A stretch of 64,000 nucleotides of DNA, from NCBI GenBank assembly GCA_963812335.1, contig CAWEUU010000007.1, positions 19,682 through 83,681 of the forward strand, in the 5' to 3' direction. Below, piece after piece: positions 3,612 to 28,401 of the stretch; position 1 is the stretch's first letter; each line of letters starts with the position of its first letter. This DNA comes from an uncultured Solirubrobacterales bacterium (GTDB lineage: Bacteria; Actinomycetota; Thermoleophilia; Solirubrobacterales; 70-9). The notes under the pieces are model-generated. The model made no database searches. It saw nothing but the letters and a program-made list of their open reading frames with translations, and was not told the DNA's origin. The position numbers and the translations under genes are program-made.

Positions 3612-5096
3612 CTAACTCGCCACGGAGACCCCCGCCAACTCCTCGCCGCCTGGGCTCGCCTCCGCCTCCGCGACCTCTGGGCCGACTCCCCGGCCGGGTC
3701 GCCCGCGAATCGCGCTCGCGGCAATGACCGCACCGATCAGGGTCACCGCCGCGGAGACCATCATCGCGTCGCTGAGCCCATCGACGAAGTTCTGTGGGGT
3801 CGCCGACTCGAAGTCGTGGCCGGCCGAGGCCTGGAAGATCGCGCCGGTGATCGCGACGCCGAGACTGCCGCCCACCATGCGGAACATCGAGAGCACGCCG
3901 GAGGCGATGCCGGCTTTCTCGACCGCGACCGCGTTCATCGCGGCGCTGGTCATCGGCGACATCGTCAGCGCGATGCCGATGCCGAGCAGCATGAAGCCGG
4001 GCAGTAGGTCGAGGTACGTCGAGTCGACCGCGATCCGGGTGAAGCTCAGCAGTGAGAGCGTCAGGACCGCGAGCCCGGCGACGATCAGCCAGCGCGGGCC
4101 GAAGCGGTCGGCGAGCCGGCCGGCGACCGGTGCGACGCCGACGATCATCAGCGTCGAGGGGAGGAAGCGCACACCCGCCTCCAGCGGCGAGTAGCGGAGG
4201 ATGTCCTGCATGTAGATGGCGAGGAAGAAGAAGACGCCCATCATCGCGAAGGTGATGATCAGCGCGACGACGACGGCGCCGACGAAGTTGCGATCGGCGA
4301 AGAAGCGGAACTCGACCATCGGCGCCTTGACCCGCAGCTCGATCGCGACGAAGGCGGCAAGCGACAGGGCCGAGCCCACGAGCAGGGCGACGATGCCGAC
4401 CGAGGCCCAACCCCAGGCGTTGCCCTCGACCAGGGCGAGGACGAGCGCGGTGAGGCCGGCGGTCAGCGCGGCGACACCGAGGTAGTCGACCTCGCGGCCG
4501 ACCGTGGTGTCGCGCGACTCGCGCACGGCGAAGATCGTCGCCGCGATCGCACCAGCGGCTACCGGGATGTTGAGGTAGAAGATCGCCCGCCAGCTGACGT
4601 GCTCGGTGAGGAAGCCGCCGAGCACCGGCCCGACCGCGAGCGCCAGGGCCGAGACTCCCGCCCAGGTGCCCATCGCCTTGCCGCGCTCGTGGGCGGGGAA
4701 GGCGTCGGTGATGATCGAGAGCGTGCCCGGCATCATCAGCGCCGCGCCGACGCCCTGCACGACGCGGCTGATCACGAGGTCGGTCGAGTTCTGCGCCAGG
4801 CCGGCGGTCGCCGAGGAGAGGGCGAAGACGACGACGCCGAGCAGGAACATGCGGCGGCGGCCGAAGATGTCGCCGAGCCGCCCGCCCGTTGCGAGCAGCA
4901 CGGCGAAGGAGAGCGTGTAGCCGTTGACGGTCCACTCGAGGCCGGAGATCGAGGCGCCGAGGTCGCGCTGGATCGAGGGCAGCGCCACATTCACGACCGT
5001 GTTGTCGAGCATGATCATGAACAGGGCGAAGCACATCGCCCCCAAGGTCCACCACTTGCGGTTGTCGTCGGTGATCAGGTGCCGGTAGCGGGTCAC
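3612..5096 (-). CDS. MFS transporter, DHA2 (EmrB/QacA-like, ~14 TMS)
   Basis: C-terminal 494 codons of track ORF 3612..6479. GTG at 5096 precedes TRYRHLITDDNRKWWTLGAMCFALFMIMLDNTVVNVALPSIQ, a typical DHA2 N-terminus. The rest of the track ORF is antisense to bioA. Confidence 0.85.
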   Translation of the reverse strand: MTRYRHLITDDNRKWWTLGAMCFALFMIMLDNTVVNVALPSIQRDLGASISGLEWTVNGYTLSFAVLLATGGRLGDIFGRRRMFLLGVVVFALSSATAGLAQNSTDLVISRVVQGVGAALMMPGTLSIITDAFPAHERGKAMGTWAGVSALALAVGPVLGGFLTEHVSWRAIFYLNIPVAAGAIAATIFAVRESRDTTVGREVDYLGVAALTAGLTALVLALVEGNAWGWASVGIVALLVGSALSLAAFVAIELRVKAPMVEFRFFADRNFVGAVVVALIITFAMMGVFFFLAIYMQDILRYSPLEAGVRFLPSTLMIVGVAPVAGRLADRFGPRWLIVAGLAVLTLSLLSFTRIAVDSTYLDLLPGFMLLGIGIALTMSPMTSAAMNAVAVEKAGIASGVLSMFRMVGGSLGVAITGAIFQASAGHDFESATPQNFVDGLSDAMMVSAAVTLIGAVIAASAIRGRPGRGVGPEVAEAEASPGGEELAGVSVAS

Positions 5097-5168
5097 CCAC
5101 CCATCTTGCCCCAACGAGGGGCTTTCCTGTGTGAGATTTGCCGCCGAAGCCGGGGCTAGATTCGCTCC

Positions 5169-6497
5169 GTGGCGATGTCGGTAGATCTCGGGAAGCTCGA
5201 TCGCGACCATCTCTGGCACCCGTTCACCCAGCAGCAAGGCTGGGTCGAGGAAGAGCCGCTGATGATCGAGCGGGCCGAAGGGGCGCAGCTGATCGACCGG
5301 GAGGGCCGCCGCTACATAGACGGGGTCTCCTCGCTTTGGTGCAACGTCCACGGGCATCGCCACGCGGGCATCGACGCGGCCGTGCGCGAGCAGCTCGAGC
5401 GGGTCGCCCACTCGACCATGCTCGGCCTCTCCCACCCCGGCGCCGCCGAGCTGGCGGCGAAGCTGGTCGAGATCGCCCCGCCGGGGCTCTCGCGCGTCTT
5501 CTACTCCGAGTCGGGCTCGACCGCGACCGAGATCGCGCTGAAGATGGCCTTCCAGTTCCAACAGCAGCGCGGCGGCCAGCACACCCGGCGCACCTCCTTC
5601 GTCCACCTGCGCGAGGCCTACCACGGCGACACGATCGGCTCGGTCTCGGTCGGCGGCATCGGCCTCTTCCACTCGACCTACCGGCCGCTGTTGTTCGAGA
5701 CCCACGCGGTCGAGCCGGGCGAGAGCGCCGATCTCGAGCGGGTCCTGTCCTGCCACGAGGAAGAGGTCGCGGCGCTGATCGTGGAGCCGTTGGTCCAGGG
5801 CGCCGCCGGCATGCTCGTCCACCCGCCCGGCTACCTGCGCGAGGCGCGCGAGCTCTGCGACCGCTTCGGCGTGCTGCTGATCTGCGACGAGGTGGCGACC
5901 GGGTTCGGCCGCACCGGGACGATGTTCGCCTGCGAGCAGGAGGGCGTCACGCCCGACCTGCTCTGCCTTGCCAAGGGCCTCACCGGCGGCTACCTGCCGC
6001 TGGCCGCGACGCTGACCACGGAGCGGATCTACGATGGCTTTCTCGGCGCCCACGAGGACTACCGCACCTTCTTCCACGGCCATACCTACACCGGCAACCC
6101 GCTCGCCTGCGCGGCGGCGCTGGCCAGCCTCGAGGCCTTCGAGAAGGAGGAGACGCTGGAGCGCCTGCAGCCGAAAATCGAGCTGCTCGGCGAGCTGCTC
6201 GAGCCGGTCGCTGCGATGCCCGAGGTCGCCGCGGTGCGCCGCCGCGGCACGATGACCGGCATCGACCTCGGCGAGCACGACCCGGCGCTGCGCCTCGGCC
6301 ACCTGGTGACCCTGGAGGCCCGCAGGCGCGGCGCGATCGTCCGCCCGCTTGGCGACGTGATCATCCTCATGCCCCCGCTCTCGATCTCCGCCGAGGAGCT
6401 GACCCAACTGGTCGAGATCGCCGCCACCTCGATCGAGGCCGCCTGCCGCGACGCCTACCCGGCGAAGGCGCCGGTCCACCTCGCCGAAGCGGCCTAG
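5169..6497 (+). CDS. bioA: adenosylmethionine-8-amino-7-oxononanoate aminotransferase
   Basis: 442 aa class-III aminotransferase. [10 protein letters not shown]-terminus and BioA-like sequence throughout. Confidence 0.93.
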
Positions 6498-6542
6498 CGG
6501 CTGTCACTGACAATTACATTCAAGTGGTATCCTTTTACCACT

Positions 6543-7016
6543 ATGGCTTACGTTGTCCCCCGCAAGAACGGCAGCTGGGAGATACGCGAGACGCGCACGA
6601 CCCCGGATGGCCCGCGCAGCCGCACGCTGGTGAGCTTTCGCGAGCTCAGCGACGAGGTCATCGCGCAGGCCCAGGACCGGGCCGAAAAGCCGATCGACCC
6701 CGATCAGCTGCGGCAGGCGGCGCTGCACGCCGGCGCACCGCTCGAGCAGTCCGGCGCCGACCGCGCCGCCGCTCAGCTGCTCGAGCAGCTCAGCATGGGA
6801 CGCGAGCCGCGCCGGGCGCTGCGACGCCTGCTCGCCGACGCGGTGAAAGATCAGGACGGCGGCCTCTCCGATGCAGCGCAGGCGGCGCAGGAGTGGGTTG
6901 CCGCGACTCCCCAGGAACGCGGCAAGACGCTGGTCGAACTCCTCCGCCTTGGCGATGCCTTGCCGAAGCGGCGCAGGCCTGATCGCAGCGAGTTCCCCGG
7001 CTTCGGACACGCCTAG
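6543..7016 (+). CDS. hypothetical protein, upstream partner of a nucleotidyltransferase
   Basis: 157-aa ORF with an AT-richer upstream region. Stop lies 3 nt before the next start. No motif I can name. Confidence 0.5.
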   Translation: MAYVVPRKNGSWEIRETRTTPDGPRSRTLVSFRELSDEVIAQAQDRAEKPIDPDQLRQAALHAGAPLEQSGADRAAAQLLEQLSMGREPRRALRRLLADAVKDQDGGLSDAAQAAQEWVAATPQERGKTLVELLRLGDALPKRRRPDRSEFPGFGHA

Positions 7017-7019
7017 CTC

Positions 7020-7580
7020 ATGGCCGAGCTCTCACTGCCCGAGAAAGTCACCGCGGTCGACCGGGCGCTGAGCGAGGCGCGCATCCCGCACGCTTTCGGC
7101 GGCGCCCTCGCGCTGGCCTACTACGCCGAGCCGCGGGTCACGATCGACATCGATATCAACGTCTTCACACCGGCCGAGCGGATCGACGAGGTCAATCTCG
7201 CGCTGGGCCCGCTCGGCGTGCAGACCCTGGAATCGGAGCAGGATCGCCTCGCGTTGGAGCGCGATGGCCAGTGCCGGATCTGGTGGGGGATCACCGCACT
7301 CGACCTGTTCTTCGCGAACGACGAGATACATGCGGTGATGCGCGACGCCGCCCGGCGCGTTCCGTTCGGCGACGACCACATCGATGTCCTCTCCCCCGAG
7401 CACCTCGTCGTCTGCAAGGCCTGCTTCGACCGCCCGAAGGACTGGATCGACATCGAACAGGTGCTGGTCGCCACCGAGCCGTTCGACGTCGCCGAGGTCG
7501 ACCGCTGGCTGGGACGCCTCGGCGAGGACGACCAGCGCAAGCGACGCTTCGACGGACTCGCGCTCGAGCTCAGGGACTGA
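7020..7580 (+). CDS. minimal nucleotidyltransferase-fold protein (MNT/AbiEii-like)
   Basis: 186 aa. HAFGGALALAYY...VTIDIDINVF fits the NTase hG[GS]...DxD pattern. Confidence 0.55.
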   Translation: MAELSLPEKVTAVDRALSEARIPHAFGGALALAYYAEPRVTIDIDINVFTPAERIDEVNLALGPLGVQTLESEQDRLALERDGQCRIWWGITALDLFFANDEIHAVMRDAARRVPFGDDHIDVLSPEHLVVCKACFDRPKDWIDIEQVLVATEPFDVAEVDRWLGRLGEDDQRKRRFDGLALELRD

Positions 7581-7595
7581 CACACCGCCAGTAAG

Positions 7596-8249
7596 GTGGC
7601 CGGGATGGGAGAGAGAAAGCGGGGGTCGGCGGAGGCTCCCAACCTCGGAGAGCCCTCGACGCCGCTGCCGTCGGCGTCGGTGGTGCTGCTGCGGCGCGGC
7701 GGCAAGCACGGCGACCGGGCGCTGGAGGTACTGCTGCTGAAGCGGACCGAGGAGGCGAAGTTCATGCCCGGGGTCTGGGTCTTCCCCGGCGGCGGTGTCG
7801 ACGGGATCGACGGTGACGGCGAGGCGCGCCACCGGGCCTGCGCCGTGCGCGAGCTCGAGGAGGAGGCCGGGATCGCGCTTCCGGACGACGAGGAGCTGAT
7901 CCTGTTCTCACGCTGGATCACCCCCGAGGTGATTTCGCGGCGCTTCGACGCCTGGTTCTTCCTCGCTCTCGCGCCCGCCCACACACCACCGGAGCCCGAC
8001 GGAGTCGAGACGACCGAGGCGGGCTGGTTCGAGCCGCGCGCCGCGCTTGACGCGCAGCAGAGCGGCGAGCTGGCGCTCGCCTTCCCGACGATCCACCAGC
8101 TCAACATGCTGCTTCCATTCGCCACTTCCGGCGAGGCGATCGAGGCCTTCCGCGGCCGCACGATCGAGCCGATCCTGCCAAAGGTGATCGGCAGCCAGGA
8201 GGACCATCGCGTGGTCCTCCCCGGCGACCCGGACTACCCGCTGGGCTGA
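7596..8249 (+). CDS. NUDIX hydrolase
   Basis: 217 aa with Nudix box GGGVDG...AVRELEEEAGI. Start could be the GTG at 7596 or the ATG at 7605. Confidence 0.85.
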   Translation: MAGMGERKRGSAEAPNLGEPSTPLPSASVVLLRRGGKHGDRALEVLLLKRTEEAKFMPGVWVFPGGGVDGIDGDGEARHRACAVRELEEEAGIALPDDEELILFSRWITPEVISRRFDAWFFLALAPAHTPPEPDGVETTEAGWFEPRAALDAQQSGELALAFPTIHQLNMLLPFATSGEAIEAFRGRTIEPILPKVIGSQEDHRVVLPGDPDYPLG

Positions 8250-19686: not shown

Positions 19687-19732
19687 ACGCGGACCGCAGC
19701 CAAAGTAGCGGCCTGGGATAATCGCCGCTCAT

Positions 19733-19806
19733 CGGGGCGTGGCGCAGCCTGGTAGCGCGCACCGTTCGGGTCGGTGAGGTCCCCGGTTCAAATCCGGGCG
19801 CCCCGA
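19733..19806 (+). tRNA. tRNA-Pro (anticodon CGG)
   Basis: Hand-folded cloverleaf. Acceptor CGGGGCG/CGCCCCG, D-stem GCGC/GCGC, anticodon stem CACCG/CGGTG with loop TTCGGGT, T-arm CCCGG-TTCAAAT-CCGGG, discriminator A. 74 nt, no encoded CCA. Confidence 0.9.
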
Positions 19807-19809
19807 TTG
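19794..19809 (+). repeat. attL-like direct repeat (tRNA-Pro 3' end)
   Basis: CCGGGCGCCCCGATTG is identical to 28386-28401. Confidence 0.65.
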
Positions 19810-20117: not shown

Positions 20118-20654
20118 ATGACGAGCCAGCGAAATGGATCGGAGATCATCGGCAGGGAGCGCCAATGGGATGCCGCGATCACGAAGCAGCTCCCCGATCT
20201 TCTGACCCGGCTTCTGGACTCGCCGATCTATGGACTTGGCGAGGGGCGCGAGCTACCGCCAGCGGCCTACGGCGTGTACCTGTTCTCGGAGCGGGGGAAG
20301 CCCCGCTACGTCGGCCGGGTGGGGCTGACGGAGCGCTCCAAGCGCGCGGGCAAGAAGTTCTCGAACTTCCGCACGCGCCTTCGAGGTCACGTCCGACCTC
20401 GCCACAACGAGGGCACCTACGCCTACGCGCGGACCGTGCGGAGCTTCCACCGGAAAAGGAAGCCGCTCGCCGGAACCCGGAGGGAGAACTGCGCTGACCC
20501 GGAGTTCGTGGCGGAGTTCCGTCGCCAATGCGAACGGATCGCGCGCTGGGACTTCCAGGTAGTTGAGATCACCGACAACCGCCTCGCCGCAGTCTTTGAG
20601 ATTTACGCGGCGACGGTGCTTGGGCTGCGCCACCAGACGTTCGCGGTTAGCTGA
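20118..20654 (+). CDS. GIY-YIG-like nuclease-domain protein
   Basis: 178 aa. YGVYLFSERGKPRYVGRVG matches GIY-(10-11 aa)-YIG spacing, with later R, N and E (FEIY) candidates. Confidence 0.6.
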   Translation: MTSQRNGSEIIGRERQWDAAITKQLPDLLTRLLDSPIYGLGEGRELPPAAYGVYLFSERGKPRYVGRVGLTERSKRAGKKFSNFRTRLRGHVRPRHNEGTYAYARTVRSFHRKRKPLAGTRRENCADPEFVAEFRRQCERIARWDFQVVEITDNRLAAVFEIYAATVLGLRHQTFAVS

Positions 20655-20700
20655 AGGTGGCGGCGCCCCCAGCGAACCGAGCGGTGCCGCTGACTTTCTA

Positions 20701-21055
20701 ATGGCCTCGCCCGCGGACCCCGCTATAAACCCCTCCTACGTGGAGGCTGAGGGGCTTGCAGGGGAGGCCAAGGACGCAGAGGGGGCGCGAGTCGTCCTTC
20801 CGGCGCGCGTCTGGAATGGCAAGCTGCTGCGTGACCACCCCGAGCTCGAGGCCCACCAGGCCGACGTGCTGCGAGCCGTCAGCGAGCCCGATCACGTCGC
20901 CGTCGATCCGGTCTACGCGGATCGCCGCCGTAACTATCTGAAAAGAGGCCGGGCCGAGCCGCTGGCTGCTGGTGGTCGTAAGCTATGAGCAAGAACCGGC
21001 GCGGATCATCTCTGCGTTCGGCAACCGGAAGGACCCGCCGTCATGGAGCGAGTGA
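20701..21055 (+). pseudogene. small toxin-like protein, frameshifted (partner of the DUF2283-like gene)
   Basis: Frame 1 from the ATG at 20701 reads ...LLRDHPELEAHQADVLRAVSEPDHVAVDP...RRNYLKRGRAEP and stops at 20986-20988. A second frame, open from 20942, reads RWLLVVVSYEQEPARIISAFGNRKDPPSWSE* and ends at 21053-21055, overlapping the next ATG. Confidence 0.55.
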
Positions 21056-21330
21056 AGATCAGGATCGGGCCAGTTACCTTCGACCAGGCCGACTACGACG
21101 CCGAGCACGACGTGCTCTATCTGCACGTCGGCGAGCCTCAGGAGGGAGAGGGCGAGGAGACGCCCGAGGGGCACGTCATCCGGTACCTGCCAGGCACTCG
21201 CCGAATTGTCGGCCTGACCGTGCTCGGCCCGCGCCGCATCCTCGACCGCGACGGCAATCTGCGCATCACCATCCCGGAGTCGATCGAGGCGAGCGCCGAC
21301 GACCTGGCTCCGGCGCTTGCAGCGGTCTGA
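21043..21330 (+). CDS. DUF2283-like small protein (putative antitoxin)
   Basis: 95 aa. DYDAEHDVLYLHVGEP resembles the YDxExDxLYI signature of DUF2283, from memory. Confidence 0.7.
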   Translation: MERVKIRIGPVTFDQADYDAEHDVLYLHVGEPQEGEGEETPEGHVIRYLPGTRRIVGLTVLGPRRILDRDGNLRITIPESIEASADDLAPALAAV

Positions 21331-21414: not shown

Positions 21415-22591
21415 TTAAGGTGAACTGACTCCAAGTTCCCCCGACACTTCCGGGGGATCGATAGCCCTTCGAAGCGAGACAGCCCCCGACCCAGCTGGGT
21501 CGGGGGCTGTCCGCGCTGCGACTCAGGCTCCTGGCTTCACGCCAATGAAGTTCAGAAAGGGAGTCGCATGACCAAGGATGACGTGCTGTTCGGCTACCGC
21601 CAAGCCCTCTTCGCGGAGGCCGCGAGGACAAGCGTTGCTGCGGCCTGCCGGCGCTTCGGGGTGCACCGCTCTACCTACTACGGCTGGAAGAGGGCCGTCG
21701 AGCGCCATGGCCTCGAGGTGCTGCGCCCCAGGGAGCGCCGGCGCCCCAAGATGCCCAACCAGCTGCCGAAGATGGTCGAGGAGCGGATCCTCAGCTTCTC
21801 GATCGCCCACCCGGGGCTCGGTCCCAAGCGCATCGCCGGGGAGCTGCGTCGTTCCAAGTGGGGCGCGATCGTGGTCTCGCCCAACGGCGTCTGGAAGGTG
21901 CTCTGCCGCCACGGCCTCAACACCCGAGCCAAGCGCCTGGGGCTGGTGGCGGGCTACGCGGCGCCCTACGAGCCACCCCGGGATCCCGGCCCAGAGGGCC
22001 ATATCGATGTCTCCCGACCCGGCGAGCTGGTCGGGATCGACTGCTTTTACGTCGGGCGGCTGCGCGGCACAGAGGGCAAGGTCTGGCAGCTCACCGCGAT
22101 CGACGTCGCCTCCTCCTTCGGCTGGGCGGAGCTGGTGGTCGCCAAGAGGGCAACCCGGTCGGGCGGCAGACCTCAAAGCTCGCGCGGCGGGTCGCCGCTC
22201 ATCTGGAGACTGCGGGCTGGCGCCTGGAGCGCTTGCTCTCCGACAATGGCAACGAGTTCAAGGGCGAGTTCACCAAGACGGTGGAAGACCTGGGTGCCCG
22301 CCACACCCGGATCCACGCCGGGCGGCCGCAGACCAACGGCAACGTCGAGGCCCTGCACAAGACGATCCTCGACGAGTGCTGGCGGCCTGCCTTCGCCCGC
22401 TACTTGCAGCCTCGCCTGAGCGGCCTCAAACGGGAGCTCGACACCTACCTGCGCTTCTACAACTTCGACCGAGTTCACCATGGCCGCCTGACCGGCGGCC
22501 AGATCCCGGCGGACATCGTCTACGGTGCCCGCAAGATGGAGGTCAGATGAGCCTGGGGTGTCGGCACATCTTGGAGTCTGTCCAGCTTAAG
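21414..22591 (+). mobile_element. IS481-family insertion sequence, decayed, with CTTAAG flanks
   Basis: 34-nt imperfect terminal inverted repeats (21414-21447 versus the reverse complement of 22558-22591, 27/34 identical, shared GACTCCAAG and CCGACAC). The palindromic CTTAAG at both outer ends is a possible 6-bp target duplication. Confidence 0.75.
21568..22550 (+). pseudogene. IS481-type DDE transposase (integrase core), one frameshift
   Basis: Track ORFs 21568..22419 (HTH, ...IDCFYVGRLRGTEGKVWQLTAIDVASSFGWAELV) and 21858..22550 (...LLSDNGNEFKG...GRPQTNGNVEALHKTILDECW...) join if one G is added near 22148-22152. Confidence 0.8.
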
Positions 22592-23534: not shown

Positions 23535-25871
23535 ATGGCGGGGTCAGACACTTTTCGGGGCATCTCCTTCCAGGCCGCGTATGCAGTCGGACTTGCGCTT
23601 GACGTCCTCGAAGGCAAAGGCGAGACGTTGGTGCTCGAGGGCACCGCTGATGTCGTCGACGCAGCGATCCTGGGAGCCGGCCGTGAGCCGTCGCTGACGG
23701 TCCAGGCGAAGACGAAGATGGAGCCCTACTCGTGGGCACCTGCCGAGCTATCGAAGGTCCTGAATGGCTGGCTGGGGACGAGCCCGTCTCGGACCTCCCG
23801 GCTTGAGTTCGTCACCGATGGTTCATTGGGGCCGGAAGTTGTCGATGATCTGCGTCCCGCACTCCGGCGACTGGCCGAAGGTACCCTCGGACCGAAGGAT
23901 CGTGAGTACCTGAAGAAGAAGGGTCTCGATCCGACCGAGAAGGCCCTCGGCCGAGCTGCGATTAAGAGTCGCCTGCCAGGGGGCAGGGAACTATTGGAGG
24001 AAGCGACGCTCCGCTTCCTCGCCTTGCATGAGCGTGTCGGCCAGATGCAGGTCGAGGAGGCTCGCGACGTGATCTTCCGCCTGTTCAGTGAGACGGTGCT
24101 CGGCTCGGGCGAGCTGGAGCCGAGCAGTCGCGAGCTGAGCCGCCTGCAGATCGCCGAGCTGGTCGGCCTACCGCTCGAGACCATCGATACGGCCGCCCCG
24201 TGGTCGGAGGAGGTCGAGGCGCGCTACAAGGACGCGCTCAAAGAGATGCCGCTCGGCCCGGCCTGGACGCTGCTGGACATGTTGGAGGCCGAGCGCCCAC
24301 CGGCCCTGGCGTTCGTGAAGGCCGGTACCGGCGACGGCCAGGACACACCTATACCGGCCCTCAAATTGTTCGACCTCGGACAACACCTGTCCTTGATCGG
24401 AGCAGCCGGCTCAGGCAAGACGACGACGTTCGCGCAGATCGGCGCCCTGGCAATCGAACACGGAGCGCTTCCGGTCTCGCTTCGCCTCCCGAGCTATGAC
24501 GGCCGCTTCGAGCCAGCACTCACCCGAGCGCTGGAAAGAGTTCTCGGAGCCCCGATAGCTCCGGGGGTCGCATCGATCCTTATGGGCCGCGAGGACGTCG
24601 TGATCCTCCTTGACGACGTCACCGAGCTCGTGCCCGATCAGCGACGAGCACTACTCGAAGACGTTCGAAGGCTCACGACGAGCGGAGCAAAGGCGAGATT
24701 CATCCTCGCCGGTCGCGACGCCGCTGGGCTCACCTCGATGACGACCGCCATCTACTCGCTTGTCGGGCTGGTCCCCGAGAGTCGTCGTGAGATTGCCGCT
24801 TCGCTCATCGAGGATCCCGAAAATGCCGTACTCGACATCGAAGAGCAGCTGGGAGATCTGGCCGACAATCCTCTGCTCTTCACGATGGCGCTCGCATTGC
24901 GGACGCGAGGCATCGGCGCCTCCAACCGCGCCCAACTCTTCGATGGCTTCCTCACTGGGCTTGAGCATCGTGAGGAGGGCGAGCGATTGGGCTTCGCCGA
25001 GCGGGCCTGCCTCGAGGTCGCGTGCTACGAGCTCGTCACCGAAGGTCGCTACAGCGCGGAGGAGTGGTGGTGGATCGAGCGATTCTCGGCTGCAAGACAA
25101 GAGCTGATCGAAGAAGGAACTATCGCCGGGGACACGGCAGCGGCCGAGGGGCTGATTCAGGGAGTGAAGCGCCTGGGGCTACTTCAGGTGATCGCCGGGA
25201 GCGCGGAGATCGGGCTTCTCCACGACCTCTTCTGCGACTGGTTGGCATCCGGGGCGATTTCCAGAGGTCAGCGCAGCCTTCACGACCCTGTCCCGCGCAA
25301 TCATGAGGAGGCCGCCGCGTTCCTCGTCGAGCGCGGACCGCTGAGCGATGCCCAGACCCTCGCCGTGGCGGGCAGCATCGTCGCGGCTGCACGGGTGGCC
25401 GACGCATCCGAAGCCGGGGCGATCGATCCGCTAATGGCCGATCAGGCCTGGCAGTGCCTGAGGGAGCAGTTCGGGGCGAAGCTTGCAGGCCGCCTCGACT
25501 CGCTTCATCTCCATTGCGCACTCGCGTCACCGACGCTGGCCTATCTGGGCGTGAGCGAGCCGACGGGCGCAGTCGAGCCGTTGCCCGACTCCCCCCTCTC
25601 CTGCGTTCCTCGCAGTCCCGCCTCCTCGCTCTCGGTCGCCGTCGACCTTTGGTTTTCGGCCGTCCGCCTGGTAGTTGAACCGGCGGGTTTGGGAGGTGTC
25701 GCCTCCGGTCCCCGAGGACGCGACGGAGCTCGCCGCGGAGATGGAGAGGGTCGCCGATCAGCGCGAGGCCGCGTTCGTCGCGCTGATGGAGGAGCTAGCT
25801 CCTTCGCTGATCGAGCGGGCAAGAGAAGAGGTCCCGGGGGGCTCGATCCTCGGCTGGGTCCTCCCCAGTGA
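23535..25871 (+). CDS. STAND/NACHT-like P-loop NTPase with N-terminal PD-(D/E)xK (Cap4/DUF4297-like) nuclease domain
   Basis: GGGAG lies 5 nt upstream of the ATG. N-terminus GISFQAAYAV...LEGTADVVDA...VQAKT has a G-x-FQ / E..D / QxK layout. Walker A GAAGSGKTT at 24399; Walker B VVILLDDV at 24597; NPLLFTMAL after the NTPase core. The last ~65 codons look out of frame. Confidence 0.75.
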   Translation: MAGSDTFRGISFQAAYAVGLALDVLEGKGETLVLEGTADVVDAAILGAGREPSLTVQAKTKMEPYSWAPAELSKVLNGWLGTSPSRTSRLEFVTDGSLGPEVVDDLRPALRRLAEGTLGPKDREYLKKKGLDPTEKALGRAAIKSRLPGGRELLEEATLRFLALHERVGQMQVEEARDVIFRLFSETVLGSGELEPSSRELSRLQIAELVGLPLETIDTAAPWSEEVEARYKDALKEMPLGPAWTLLDMLEAERPPALAFVKAGTGDGQDTPIPALKLFDLGQHLSLIGAAGSGKTTTFAQIGALAIEHGALPVSLRLPSYDGRFEPALTRALERVLGAPIAPGVASILMGREDVVILLDDVTELVPDQRRALLEDVRRLTTSGAKARFILAGRDAAGLTSMTTAIYSLVGLVPESRREIAASLIEDPENAVLDIEEQLGDLADNPLLFTMALALRTRGIGASNRAQLFDGFLTGLEHREEGERLGFAERACLEVACYELVTEGRYSAEEWWWIERFSAARQELIEEGTIAGDTAAAEGLIQGVKRLGLLQVIAGSAEIGLLHDLFCDWLASGAISRGQRSLHDPVPRNHEEAAAFLVERGPLSDAQTLAVAGSIVAAARVADASEAGAIDPLMADQAWQCLREQFGAKLAGRLDSLHLHCALASPTLAYLGVSEPTGAVEPLPDSPLSCVPRSPASSLSVAVDLWFSAVRLVVEPAGLGGVASGPRGRDGARRGDGEGRRSARGRVRRADGGASSFADRAGKRRGPGGLDPRLGPPQ

Positions 25872-26106
25872 GGAGTACCCCGGTGTGCCGGGAACCGGAG
25901 AGACGATCCGCGACAACAAGGTCCTCTATCGAAACACGACTGGAATCACCCACATCGAGGCGGTCGGGAGTGAGGACGAGGTTCCCGACCTCGACGAGGC
26001 CGGCTGGATGACCGCATCCGCTTTTGTGCGCGAGCGTCCATCAGCCTATGCGAAGAAGCGAGTCCGCACGGCGTTCTCCCACCTAATGAGGAGATTCGAT
26101 GGCTAG
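25675..26106 (+). CDS. hypothetical protein, or the displaced C-terminus of the STAND protein
   Basis: This frame reads protein-like from ~25690 (SPPVPEDATELAAEMERVADQREAAFVALMEEL...) while the upstream frame degenerates to R/G-rich sequence. Internal start candidates are the GTG at 25696 and the ATG at 25741. Confidence 0.5.
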   Translation: MNRRVWEVSPPVPEDATELAAEMERVADQREAAFVALMEELAPSLIERAREEVPGGSILGWVLPSEEYPGVPGTGETIRDNKVLYRNTTGITHIEAVGSEDEVPDLDEAGWMTASAFVRERPSAYAKKRVRTAFSHLMRRFDG

Positions 26107-27142
26107 GTCGATCTGGACGGTGGCCTCCGAGCTGGCCGAAGGGCTGCGCGAGACGCCGCAGATGCATAACTTCAGGCGGGCCTTCGATGATCAGGATCTG
26201 CGTGTCCGACTGAGCCATCTGACCGCCATCTACAGCGCCCTGCGCGAGCACGAGATCCTGCTCGGCACCCGACTCAATCGGATGGGCTCCGTAGTCGAAC
26301 CCTGGGTCGAATCGGAGGAAGACCGTGAGTGGCTCGAAAGTGCGATCGAGTCGGGCGATGGGTTTCAGGTCGCGATCGAGTATCTCCGCTCATACCTGCC
26401 GAGATATCCCCACCTGCGGGTCCCACACCTCCGGCGGGGGTCGCCGCTCGACTTTGCCGACGGTCCGCTATTGATCGACTACTTCCCCTGGCAACGCGAG
26501 ATCCGTGCCTTGCAGTTCGAACCCGACAAGCCGCCGCAGCTATCGCGACTTGGCGGCGAGAACTTCACGGAGCTTCTGCGCGAGCTCGCAGGAGGACTCA
26601 AGGAAAGAGACAGCTGGCGTCGCTTCGCAGCGGCGCGGAATGAGATGAGCGAGCAAGACTGGGCCGCTCTCAACCAGATCTCAAGCGACTTTTCTCAGCG
26701 AGTCAAGCAGGAGGTGGTGGACGCCGAAGCCGGTCATTACCTCACGGAGCGCTTCGCCTACCGGATGGCCGAGCTCAATCGAGCCGTCGAATCCGCCGAA
26801 GGGCAGCCGCGTGAGTACCTGGCCAGCTTCGAGGCAATCCATGAGTTGATCACGGTCGTCGCCGGCTTCATGGAAACGCTGATCATCAAGGGCCACCTCC
26901 CGCTGATCACGCCCTACCGGATGGACATCGGGCCCGGCCGGGACCTGCGACGGGCCGAGCTTGCGACGTTTGGCGACGATCCGTTCGACAGTGGCGGTGG
27001 GGTCCTCTTCGTGGAAGGTCCCGACGAGGGCTCACACGGCCTTCTATACGCGACGGGTCATACTCACCGCTGGCCGAGGCTCAATCAGCCCGAGCGTTCG
27101 ACGATGGTGGTCGAGGGTTGGTTTGTCCGCGAGCAGATCTGA
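26099..27142 (+). CDS. hypothetical protein (347 aa), third gene of the island operon
   Basis: GAGGAG lies 5 nt upstream. The ATG overlaps the upstream stop (ATGGCTAG). Balanced, mostly helical-looking composition with no motif I can name. Confidence 0.65.
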   Translation: MARSIWTVASELAEGLRETPQMHNFRRAFDDQDLRVRLSHLTAIYSALREHEILLGTRLNRMGSVVEPWVESEEDREWLESAIESGDGFQVAIEYLRSYLPRYPHLRVPHLRRGSPLDFADGPLLIDYFPWQREIRALQFEPDKPPQLSRLGGENFTELLRELAGGLKERDSWRRFAAARNEMSEQDWAALNQISSDFSQRVKQEVVDAEAGHYLTERFAYRMAELNRAVESAEGQPREYLASFEAIHELITVVAGFMETLIIKGHLPLITPYRMDIGPGRDLRRAELATFGDDPFDSGGGVLFVEGPDEGSHGLLYATGHTHRWPRLNQPERSTMVVEGWFVREQI

Positions 27143-27372: not shown

Positions 27373-28149
27373 ATGGATAGCGGCTGCGTCTTCTGTGGTC
27401 GAACGCCGGTCTCTCGGGAGCACCTGTGGCCAGATTGGCTGCGGCGAGAGGCCGCGATCAGCGAGCGGTTCGATCACCGGATTGAGCAGGAGGCGGACGG
27501 TCTTGAGACGCGGGATGTGGAGTTCAGCACACCGCCGTTCAACCAGGTCGTAAAGGCCGTCTGCGCGCCGTGCAACGGGGGTTGGATGTCGAGCATCGAG
27601 GCCGGTGCCAAGCCGATCTTGCAGGACTTGGTCTATGCGCGCGGGTGCACTCTAGACATGGATGAGCAGCGCAGACTTGCGACCTGGGCATTCCTGAAGG
27701 TGTGCGTCTTCGATGAGCTCCACCCGCAGGAGCGAGTGGTGCCTGCGGAGCATCGCCGTCGTTTCTTCACGTACCGGCAGCCGCCCGCGGCGGGCGTCGC
27801 GATCTGGCTGGGCACATACGAGGCGCTCGAGGTCGGGCACTACGCCTACCAGGGACTCAGGATCGGACGTCAAGGACTACCGGAACCGGAGGAGCCGAAT
27901 ATCTACGTAGTCACGATCACCATGGGAGCGCTGATCGTCCAAATCGCCGGCAGCCTGCTCCCAGGCCTTCGTGTCGATGATGTCCCATACCCGCCCGAGT
28001 TGCACCTCGCCAAGATCTGGCCCAGAACACGCGACAGCGAGGCATTGCCACAAGACCACGTCATGAACCACGACACGCTTGTGGGCTTTACAAAGATGCT
28101 CTACAACGTGATCGGCCATATCGCCGGCGGTACTCCGCCCGCCCGATAG
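27373..28149 (+). CDS. HNH-like (HNH_5-type) zinc-finger endonuclease-domain protein
   Basis: 258 aa. N-terminus CVFCGRTPVSREHLWPDWL ... CAPCNGGW has the CxxC...EH...CxxCN layout of HNH/EndoVII nucleases. Confidence 0.55.
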   Translation: MDSGCVFCGRTPVSREHLWPDWLRREAAISERFDHRIEQEADGLETRDVEFSTPPFNQVVKAVCAPCNGGWMSSIEAGAKPILQDLVYARGCTLDMDEQRRLATWAFLKVCVFDELHPQERVVPAEHRRRFFTYRQPPAAGVAIWLGTYEALEVGHYAYQGLRIGRQGLPEPEEPNIYVVTITMGALIVQIAGSLLPGLRVDDVPYPPELHLAKIWPRTRDSEALPQDHVMNHDTLVGFTKMLYNVIGHIAGGTPPAR

Positions 28150-28385: not shown

Positions 28386-28401
28386 CCGGGCGCCCCGATT
28401 G
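28386..28401 (+). repeat. attR-like direct repeat
   Basis: CCGGGCGCCCCGATTG is identical to the tRNA-Pro 3' end at 19794-19809. Flanks are also similar (GTTGAA versus GTTCAAAT; GCAGC follows in both). Confidence 0.65.

Follow-up and report, generated by a model that had tools for sequence, protein, structure and literature searches.

The 64,000-nucleotide stretch of DNA analysed here (the window) comes from an uncultured Solirubrobacterales bacterium (contig CAWEUU010000007.1, positions 19,682 to 83,681) and carries three co-directional open reading frames (ORFs) of 778, 143 and 347 amino acids (aa) between its positions 23535 and 27142. An earlier description, made from the letters alone and called here the sequence-only reading, had presented them as a three-gene defence operon in which a nuclease-STAND nucleoside triphosphatase (NTPase) has recruited two accessory proteins. 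The signals that it listed are present: a GGGAG 6 nucleotides (nt) upstream of the ATG at 23535, a GAGGAG ahead of the third ORF, a ATGGCTAG overlap shared by the NTPase stop and the start of the 347-aa ORF (8 nt in the window), a Walker A motif GAAGSGKTT starting at 24399, a Walker B motif VVILLDDV at 24597 and an NPLLFTMAL stretch. Here we present a comparison with homologues that resolves the three ORFs into two genes: a large gene (gene A), predicted to encode a Cap4-type nuclease fused to a NACHT-type STAND module, and a conserved partner gene (gene B). Coordinates are collected in Table 1.

A search of 5.8 billion proteins recovered 39 relatives of the 778-aa ORF, about 30 of which are 830-866 aa long and align to the first 92% of the query only. 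The closest relative (P0001, 856 aa) is 93% identical to the window NTPase, and the 143-aa ORF corresponds to residues 714-856 of P0001 at 90% identity, holding the same C-terminal place in every homologue. Within the DNA itself, codon-position GC indicates that the coding frame moves from frame 0 to frame +1 near 25650, and the final 65 codons of the 778-aa ORF (25677-25871) are an arginine- and glycine-rich out-of-frame read-through. At the junction the window reads CTG-GTAG-TTG where the homologues encode Leu-Glu-Leu. Read against its homologues, ORF 1 together with ORF 2 is one gene, split by one extra base. Because the TTG at 25675 abuts an in-frame TAG and lacks a Shine-Dalgarno sequence, independent translation of the 143-aa ORF is unlikely. 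The smaller of the two supposed accessory proteins is thus the C-terminus of the NTPase, severed by a 1-nt insertion, and the system comprises two genes.

Disruptions of gene A recur among its relatives. Frameshifts fall near residue 688 in locus L025 (4212-6784) and near residues 615-640 in L022 (4473-7008) and L023, from two samples; an insertion of about 3 kb follows residue 650 or so in L016 (8001-13615); the P0031 sequence is out of frame past about residue 540; and gene A of P0023 stops at about residue 640, which could be a contig end. All these breaks lie in the C-terminal half of gene A, and relatives are disrupted surprisingly often and independently of one another. The clustering may be a detection bias, or truncation at the sensor end may be a tolerated silencing of a costly gene. 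In L005 (10531-11609) it is the partner that is frameshifted, with gene A intact.

On the three-gene view, a truncated STAND protein would work with the 347-aa protein and with a 143-aa protein that is translated on its own. Independent C-terminal splits such as those of L025, L022/L023 and L016 could, taken together, hint that a split protein is tolerated. We consider such a three-gene arrangement extremely unlikely: the break points differ by locus and each leaves an out-of-frame read-through tail, the window TTG lacks a ribosome-binding site and abuts a stop codon, and some 30 homologues are intact at about 856 aa. Homologue length, the frame switch, the alignment of the 143-aa ORF to P0001 and the junction DNA all reject it. 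A programmed frameshift or conserved split was also rejected, since roughly 30 homologues run on without a break and L025, L022 and L016 are each split at a different place.

In the window copy the frameshift cuts the last 143 residues off the NTPase. Long intact ORFs lie close together in the remainder of the 64-kb window, so the assembly is not generally prone to insertions and deletions, and a true frameshift is more probable than an error. Within the island, an IS481-like transposase is likewise broken into two frames, as would suit an island in decay. Judged on these grounds, the window copy is most likely a recently inactivated pseudogene, an assembly error being the less likely explanation. 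For annotation, the three-ORF appearance is a frameshift artefact here, and the copy in the source genome is probably dead.

Gene B lies directly 3′ of gene A in all 24 distinct loci examined, which comprise 3 metagenomic loci, 17 species-representative genomes (2 of which coincide with loci of that first set), 5 further metagenomic loci and the plasmid pKRAD01; the 17 genome loci came from a pattern scan, and the 5 metagenomic contexts were reached via distant homologues of the partner or the NTPase. Start and stop overlap by 1-11 nt in all nine loci that have gene calls or annotation, as they do in the window. This consistent overlap points to translational coupling of the NTPase and its partner. 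Thus the coupling proposed in the sequence-only reading holds for the 347-aa ORF, which is syntenic with the large gene wherever we looked among these loci, while the count of three genes falls with the 143-aa ORF. Partner homologues share 59 invariant columns among 15 sequences and 52 among 17, and on this conservation the 347-aa ORF is a real gene.

The family is rare (a scan of 185,579 species genomes gave 17 loci) and occurs mostly in Solirubrobacterales and other Actinomycetota. The pair spans Solirubrobacterales, Streptomyces, Frankia, Streptosporangium, Actinoplanes and Rhodococcus, and it also occurs on the Kineococcus plasmid pKRAD01, in Acidimicrobiales and in one Pseudomonadota metagenome-assembled genome. 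RefSeq labels its members "ATP-binding protein", "NACHT domain-containing NTPase" or "hypothetical protein". The linear plasmid pKRAD01 belongs to a cultured organism, Kineococcus radiotolerans SRS30216, and its pair (WP_012001962.1 and WP_162145165.1, locus tags KRAD_RS23140-23145, NC_009806.1 86228-89862, locus L026), both annotated as hypothetical and overlapping by 10 nt, would be a convenient source for experiments.

No third conserved gene was found in the clade of the window protein. A subclade at about 30% identity to the window protein has two more conserved genes beside the pair, of about 632 aa and 484 aa, in L007, L009, L010, L011 (about 4700-8011), L016 (7418-8011) and L008 (11681-14943). 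They stand upstream of the pair in most loci and downstream in L008, and L016 shows the 3′ part of the 484-aa gene only. Neither protein has a Pfam, PADLOC or PDB match; the 484-aa protein weakly matches DUF4145 (HEPN-like) and carries an RNESVH (Rx4H-like) motif that is not invariant. The subclade may be a four-gene version of the system.

Strict linkage and apparent coupling also speak for a rival reading as a toxin-antitoxin or addiction module, in which the nuclease-NTPase would be a toxin and the 347-aa protein its inhibitor, stabilising islands and plasmids instead of sensing phage. The pair does occur on islands, integrative elements and a plasmid, as well as beside RES/PIN toxin-antitoxin genes, and the repeated inactivation of gene A, in relatives as in the window copy, is what a costly toxic gene would lead one to expect. 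Yet the antitoxin-like gene is large and lies downstream, and a STAND switch with conserved nucleotide-sensor residues implies activation by a ligand. The L005 locus, moreover, has a broken partner beside an intact gene A, a state that would be lethal if the antitoxin were essential, although that frameshift could be a long-read assembly error. On balance we think an addiction module unlikely, and we favour a two-gene defence module, for which the predicted domains of both proteins are considered below.

Conservation in the large protein was read from a 29-sequence alignment, which also served for its AlphaFold2 (AF2) model. The N-terminal stretch GISFQ...LEGTADVVDA...VQAKT, singled out in the sequence-only reading, is conserved across the family: D39, D42, Q57 and K59 do not vary, and conservation at E35 is 90% or more. 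In the AF2 model, helix 2-25, strands 31-34, 43-46 and 52-59, helix 69-80 and strand 89-94 follow the alpha-beta-beta-beta-alpha-beta order of a PD-(D/E)xK nuclease, with D39 and D42 ahead of the second strand and QxK on the third. Profile searches agree: Pfam Cap4_nuclease (PF14130) weakly matches 10 of 18 members (best E 5e-4), PADLOC LmuA aligns over about 215 residues at E values down to 4e-7 and HamA matches more weakly, and a profile of the domain matches residues 4-104 of PDB entry 9N00, SeAvs7, at E 7e-4 (hhalign against the SeAvs7 fragment: E 1e-4, probability 57%). Entry 9N00 is apo SeAvs7, whose experimentally validated N-terminal Cap4 nuclease is needed for defence according to the preprint (bioRxiv 10.64898/2026.01.04.697583 = PMC13581612). 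Individually weak but consistent, these profile matches, together with the residues and the modelled topology, argue for a Cap4-type PD-(D/E)xK DNA nuclease, whose activity is predicted.

Weak helix-turn-helix-like matches (HTH_Crp_2, Xre-like) near aa 200-220 in 7 of 18 members raise another view of the N-terminus, namely that it is a degenerate DNA-binding module and the protein a non-immune STAND regulator, a switch for transcription or signalling like AfsR, MalT or GutR. Many STAND clades are non-defence, according to PMC13581612. Against a regulator stand the invariance of the catalytic D, D and QxK among members at about 30% identity, a spread that is patchy as well as rare, and the mobile-element and defence-island contexts; we regard it as very unlikely. 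The nuclease-STAND fusion that the sequence-only reading had proposed is upheld by invariant residues, profile matches and Foldseek.

The core of the large protein carries the marks of a STAND switch. Walker A residues G289, G292, G294, K295 and T297 are invariant or nearly so, and so is D360 of Walker B (invariant), whose family consensus is VLxDGAGELV with an acidic residue at +4; the window copy has D in place of G361 (LLDDVTEL). We take this Walker B to resemble the DGxDE signature of NACHT proteins. The sensor arginine R394 is invariant, as are P446 and L447 within NPLL 445-448 (GxP-like, in helical domain 1, HD1), and in the LHD motif of the winged helix the same holds for H563 and D568, and almost for D564. 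The AF2 model (pLDDT, the predicted local distance difference test, 85; pTM, the predicted template-modelling score, 0.80) was compared with the PDB by Foldseek. Avs3 was the best match (4e-12), followed by NLRC4, NOD2, NLRP3, NLRP9, Avs4 and NAIP5, then by plant NLRs and ORC/Cdc6; E values for Avs3, NLRC4, NOD2, NLRP3 and Avs4 range from 4e-12 to 1e-7, and for NLRC4, NOD2, NLRP3 and NLRP9, across about 500 columns, template-modelling (TM) scores were 0.30-0.38 and E values 4.8e-12 to 4e-8. Since the best structural matches are Avs3 and NLRs, the core as modelled is a NACHT-type STAND module composed of a nucleotide-binding domain, HD1 and a winged-helix domain (NBD-HD1-WHD). Among sequence profiles, Pfam AAA_16, NACHT and nSTAND5 match the window protein weakly (NACHT 13.4 bits, cut-off 26.7 bits), Pfam NACHT is recorded for some homologues, a profile of the whole large protein matched P-loops alone among PDB sequences, and NCBIfam returned P-loop noise only.

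Past the winged helix, the AF2 model shows about 275 aa of mixed alpha/beta structure without repeats, in keeping with the earlier observation that a TPR-like repeat sensor is absent; this C-terminal domain has no PDB sequence or Pfam match. Mean pairwise identity is 35% in the nuclease and 33% in the NACHT module against 23-24% in the C-terminal domain, which by this measure evolves fast.

The 347-aa partner is modelled by AF2 (pLDDT 80, pTM 0.84) as a long helical bundle (aa 1-264) followed by a small beta domain (aa 270-347), with a mean pairwise identity of 26%, and 20% in the beta domain. As noted in the sequence-only reading, it has no recognisable domain, whereas the 143-aa protein, listed there as equally anonymous, is simply the NTPase C-terminus. 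Foldseek against the PDB and BFVD gave nothing at E <= 0.001, a profile search against PDB sequences gave nothing significant, and PADLOC, NCBIfam and PHROGs gave no match. An exhaustive hidden Markov model search of 1.84 billion representatives returned about 230 clusters at 50% identity; among the matches listed, full-length members are about 340-400 aa, the shorter ones resemble fragments, and no protein is of a length to include a fused domain. Com_YlbF is weakly matched by 9 of 17 members over aa 158-251 (best E 6.6e-6), probably a generic likeness between helical bundles, and it gave no functional lead. The likeness of a barrel of about 65 residues to baseplate-hub and tail proteins, at E 0.04-0.5, was counted as non-evidence, and descent of the partner from the NTPase C-terminal domain as a paralogue was rejected (hhalign probability 0.2%).

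The most conserved stretch of the partner, with V108-P109-H110, G114-S115-P116 and F129-P130-W131 (aa 108-131, window 26420-26491), is predicted to be disordered and overlaps the only low-confidence segment of its model, aa 112-135. Such a VPH..GSP..FPW loop is as expected of an interface that would become ordered only on binding another molecule.

Among known systems, Avs3 and Avs7 (PDB 8DGC, 9N00/9N01/9YIX) come closest, with the same order of Cap4 nuclease, STAND NTPase and C-terminal recognition region in one polypeptide. SeAvs7 binds ATP via K292, D358 and R395, according to bioRxiv 10.64898/2026.01.04.697583 (= PMC13581612). The family equivalents are K295, D360 and R394, and this almost equal spacing indicates that the first 400 or so residues share one layout. 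Avs3 and Avs7 differ, however, in that each is encoded by one gene, is about 1500-2000 aa long and has a large TPR-like sensor, whereas the family described here combines 856 aa with a 347-aa partner conserved at all 24 loci, and identity to Avs3 and Avs7 is only about 14-19%. The bNACHT clade 14 proteins, compared by description, are alike in that a short C-terminal domain without repeats comes after the NACHT-type module and in lying near other defence systems; they reportedly lack an N-terminal effector, and bNACHT genes are reported to be rarely in operons and such operons to be poorly conserved, in contrast to the Cap4 nuclease and strictly conserved operon partner seen here. LmuA (Lamassu) and HamA (Hachiman), the best defence-database matches of the nuclease domain, share only the Cap4/DUF4297-like nuclease superfamily: PADLOC gives an N-terminal LmuA match, the operon has no SMC-like LmuB, no LmuC and no HamB helicase, and the nuclease is fused to NACHT. 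Nor does the pair resemble a CBASS Cap4 effector, as the nuclease is followed by NACHT and not by SAVED and no cyclase lies in the operon; CBASS is seen only as a neighbouring system at some loci. NAIP/NLRC4 and plant sensor-helper NLR pairs offer an analogy of function and not of homology, in that a STAND engine may need a separate recognition protein, but the partner here is not a STAND protein and, by the hhalign result above, shows no relation to gene A.

No PADLOC v2, NCBIfam or Pfam model names the pair, bearing out the earlier remark that it fits no named system; PADLOC offers domain-level matches only (LmuA, HamA, mad8, mad3) and none for the partner. The literature that could be searched names no two-gene Cap4-NACHT system. 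The STAND census of Lee et al. (PMC13581612) clustered only sensors of at least 400 aa and already catalogues hundreds of uncharacterised defence-associated STAND clades. The Cap4-STAND fusion is an established architecture, known from Avs3 and Avs7, of which the pair looks like an unnamed two-gene variant.

Bacterial STAND and NLR-like defence proteins are as a rule portrayed as one polypeptide with long repeats that contact phage proteins directly. The family would depart from this in two ways, with a short novel domain in place of a repeat sensor and an obligate, coupled partner. It would offer a prokaryotic NLR in which the separation of recognition from execution is tractable, and would add a defence module typical of high-GC Actinomycetota (Solirubrobacterales, Streptomyces, Frankia, Rhodococcus, Kineococcus), which E. 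coli-centred screens cover poorly. Both the partner and the short sensor are new, although uncharacterised STAND clades linked to defence are numerous and a specialist is unlikely to be surprised by the general mechanism. Compared with the nuclease and NACHT module, the C-terminal domain and the partner diverge faster in our alignments, as Avs sensors do. Their faster divergence, together with the obligate linkage and the missing repeat sensor, leads us to infer that the two jointly form the specificity module.

Taking these lines together, we think the pair is probably an Avs-like abortive-infection module of two genes, placed on a tRNA-Pro island and frameshifted in its window copy, with a mechanism modelled on Avs3 and Avs7. 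At rest, the product of gene A would be an ADP-bound, autoinhibited monomer in which H563 of the LHD motif and the P-loop grip the nucleotide. A phage-derived cue would be recognised by the fast-evolving C-terminal domain of A jointly with B, which might serve as co-sensor, adaptor or guarded regulator. Recognition would lead to nucleotide exchange, ATP binding and oligomerisation of the NACHT modules, and the oligomer would assemble the Cap4 domains into an active double-stranded DNA nuclease that degrades phage and host DNA, giving abortive infection.

Several observations weigh against this interpretation. The window protein scores 15 bits with Cap4_nuclease, below the 26.2-bit Pfam gathering cut-off, and every Cap4 match falls under its curated threshold. 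A large repeat or recognised sensor, typically of at least 400 aa in Avs proteins, is absent, the C-terminal domain having the short, repeat-free form described above. With its frameshift, the window copy supports no claim of function in the Solirubrobacterales source genome, and the defence-gene neighbourhoods reported below are anecdotal.

A more specific and decidedly tentative proposal, to which we give a rather low probability, is that the 347-aa protein is a pattern-recognition, guarded or decoy subunit of a two-component bacterial NLR, which would bind or be modified by a phage factor and, through its VPH..GSP..FPW loop, would license the short C-terminal domain of the Cap4-NACHT protein for oligomerisation. 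In bacteria the pair would then follow the sensor-helper or guard-guardee logic of NLRs, using a new fold. The small beta domain of the partner bears a faint likeness to barrels of phage baseplate hubs or tail tips.

Table 1. Features of the window, with the basis or description of each (positions are those of the window).
Feature	Coordinates	Strand	Basis or description
ORF 1, 778 aa	23535-25871	+	ATG start
ORF 2, 143 aa	25675-26106	+	TTG start
ORF 3, 347 aa	26099-27142	+	ATG start
Single Cap4-NACHT gene (gene A), 856 aa without the extra base	23535-26106	+	Residues 1-712 in frame 0; codon 713 interrupted; residues 714-856 from 25675
Predicted Cap4-like PD-(D/E)xK nuclease domain, aa 1-240	23535-24254	+	Invariant residues, weak profile matches, AF2 topology
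Predicted NACHT-type STAND module, aa 275-580	24357-25274	+	Invariant residues, Foldseek, weak Pfam matches
C-terminal alpha/beta domain, aa 581-856, contains the frameshift	25275-26106	+	AF2 secondary structure
Inserted T	25672	+	Breaks codon E713 (GAG to GTAG); homologue comparison and DNA reading
Shine-Dalgarno GAGGAG of partner gene	26088-26093	+	5 nt ahead of ATG 26099
Partner gene (gene B), 347 aa	26099-27142	+	Downstream of NTPase in 24/24 loci; AF2
tRNA-Pro(CGG), island integration target	19732-19807	+	ARAGORN
Left 16-nt perfect direct repeat CCGGGCGCCCCGATTG, attL-like	19794-19809		Repeat search; overlaps tRNA-Pro 3′ end
Right 16-nt direct repeat CCGGGCGCCCCGATTG, attR-like, island end	28386-28401		Repeat search
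IS481-like transposase, in two frames	21568-22550	+	Pfam: HTH domains 21568-22419 (HTH_28/HTH_32), rve_3 21858-22550; upstream of operon, inside island

The pair sits in a tRNA-linked island, as the sequence-only reading had said: a tRNA-Pro(CGG) and a 16-nt direct repeat bound the region, GC is lowered between the two repeat copies, and it is back to about 0.69-0.72 past 28.4 kb, right where the second copy falls. By these sequence features it is an 8.6-kb island integrated at the tRNA-Pro and flanked by attachment (att) sites; no integrase was detected within the 8.6 kb.

Neighbours of the relatives include a type II CBASS (SMODS, ThiF, JAB) and a deaminase in L022; AbiEi, HEPN_AbiV, PLD, a methyltransferase and IS481 in L020; a CHAT protease in L025; and a resolvase, a relaxase, HNH, RES, DUF4917 and FitA/PIN in L001. 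Among 121 neighbouring ORFs from 15 genome loci there were matches to CBASS cyclase with patatin, PD-Lambda-1, HamB, SIR2, PD-T4-6 and PLD, along with integrases, transposases and TraG. Such neighbours are suggestive of defence islands and mobile elements.

The sequence-only reading had placed the operon among other nucleases; by eye, the flanking 178-aa ORF looks GIY-YIG-like and the 258-aa ORF HNH-like. The searches did not support this, as neither ORF matched anything in Pfam, PADLOC, NCBIfam or the PDB. The 258-aa ORF (27373-28149), directly downstream of the operon and inside the island, has an N-terminal CxxC...EHLWP of HNH-like look; its sole match is phrog_38451 (PHROGs, unknown function) at 8e-8, and other loci do not have it beside the pair. 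Shortly before the IS481-like transposase comes a perfect 17+17-nt palindrome (21478-21511). The small ORFs of the island at 20118-21330 encode 178 aa, 141 aa and 95 aa, the last with a weak DUF2283 match (E 9e-4), and may be toxin-antitoxin-like or accessory cargo.

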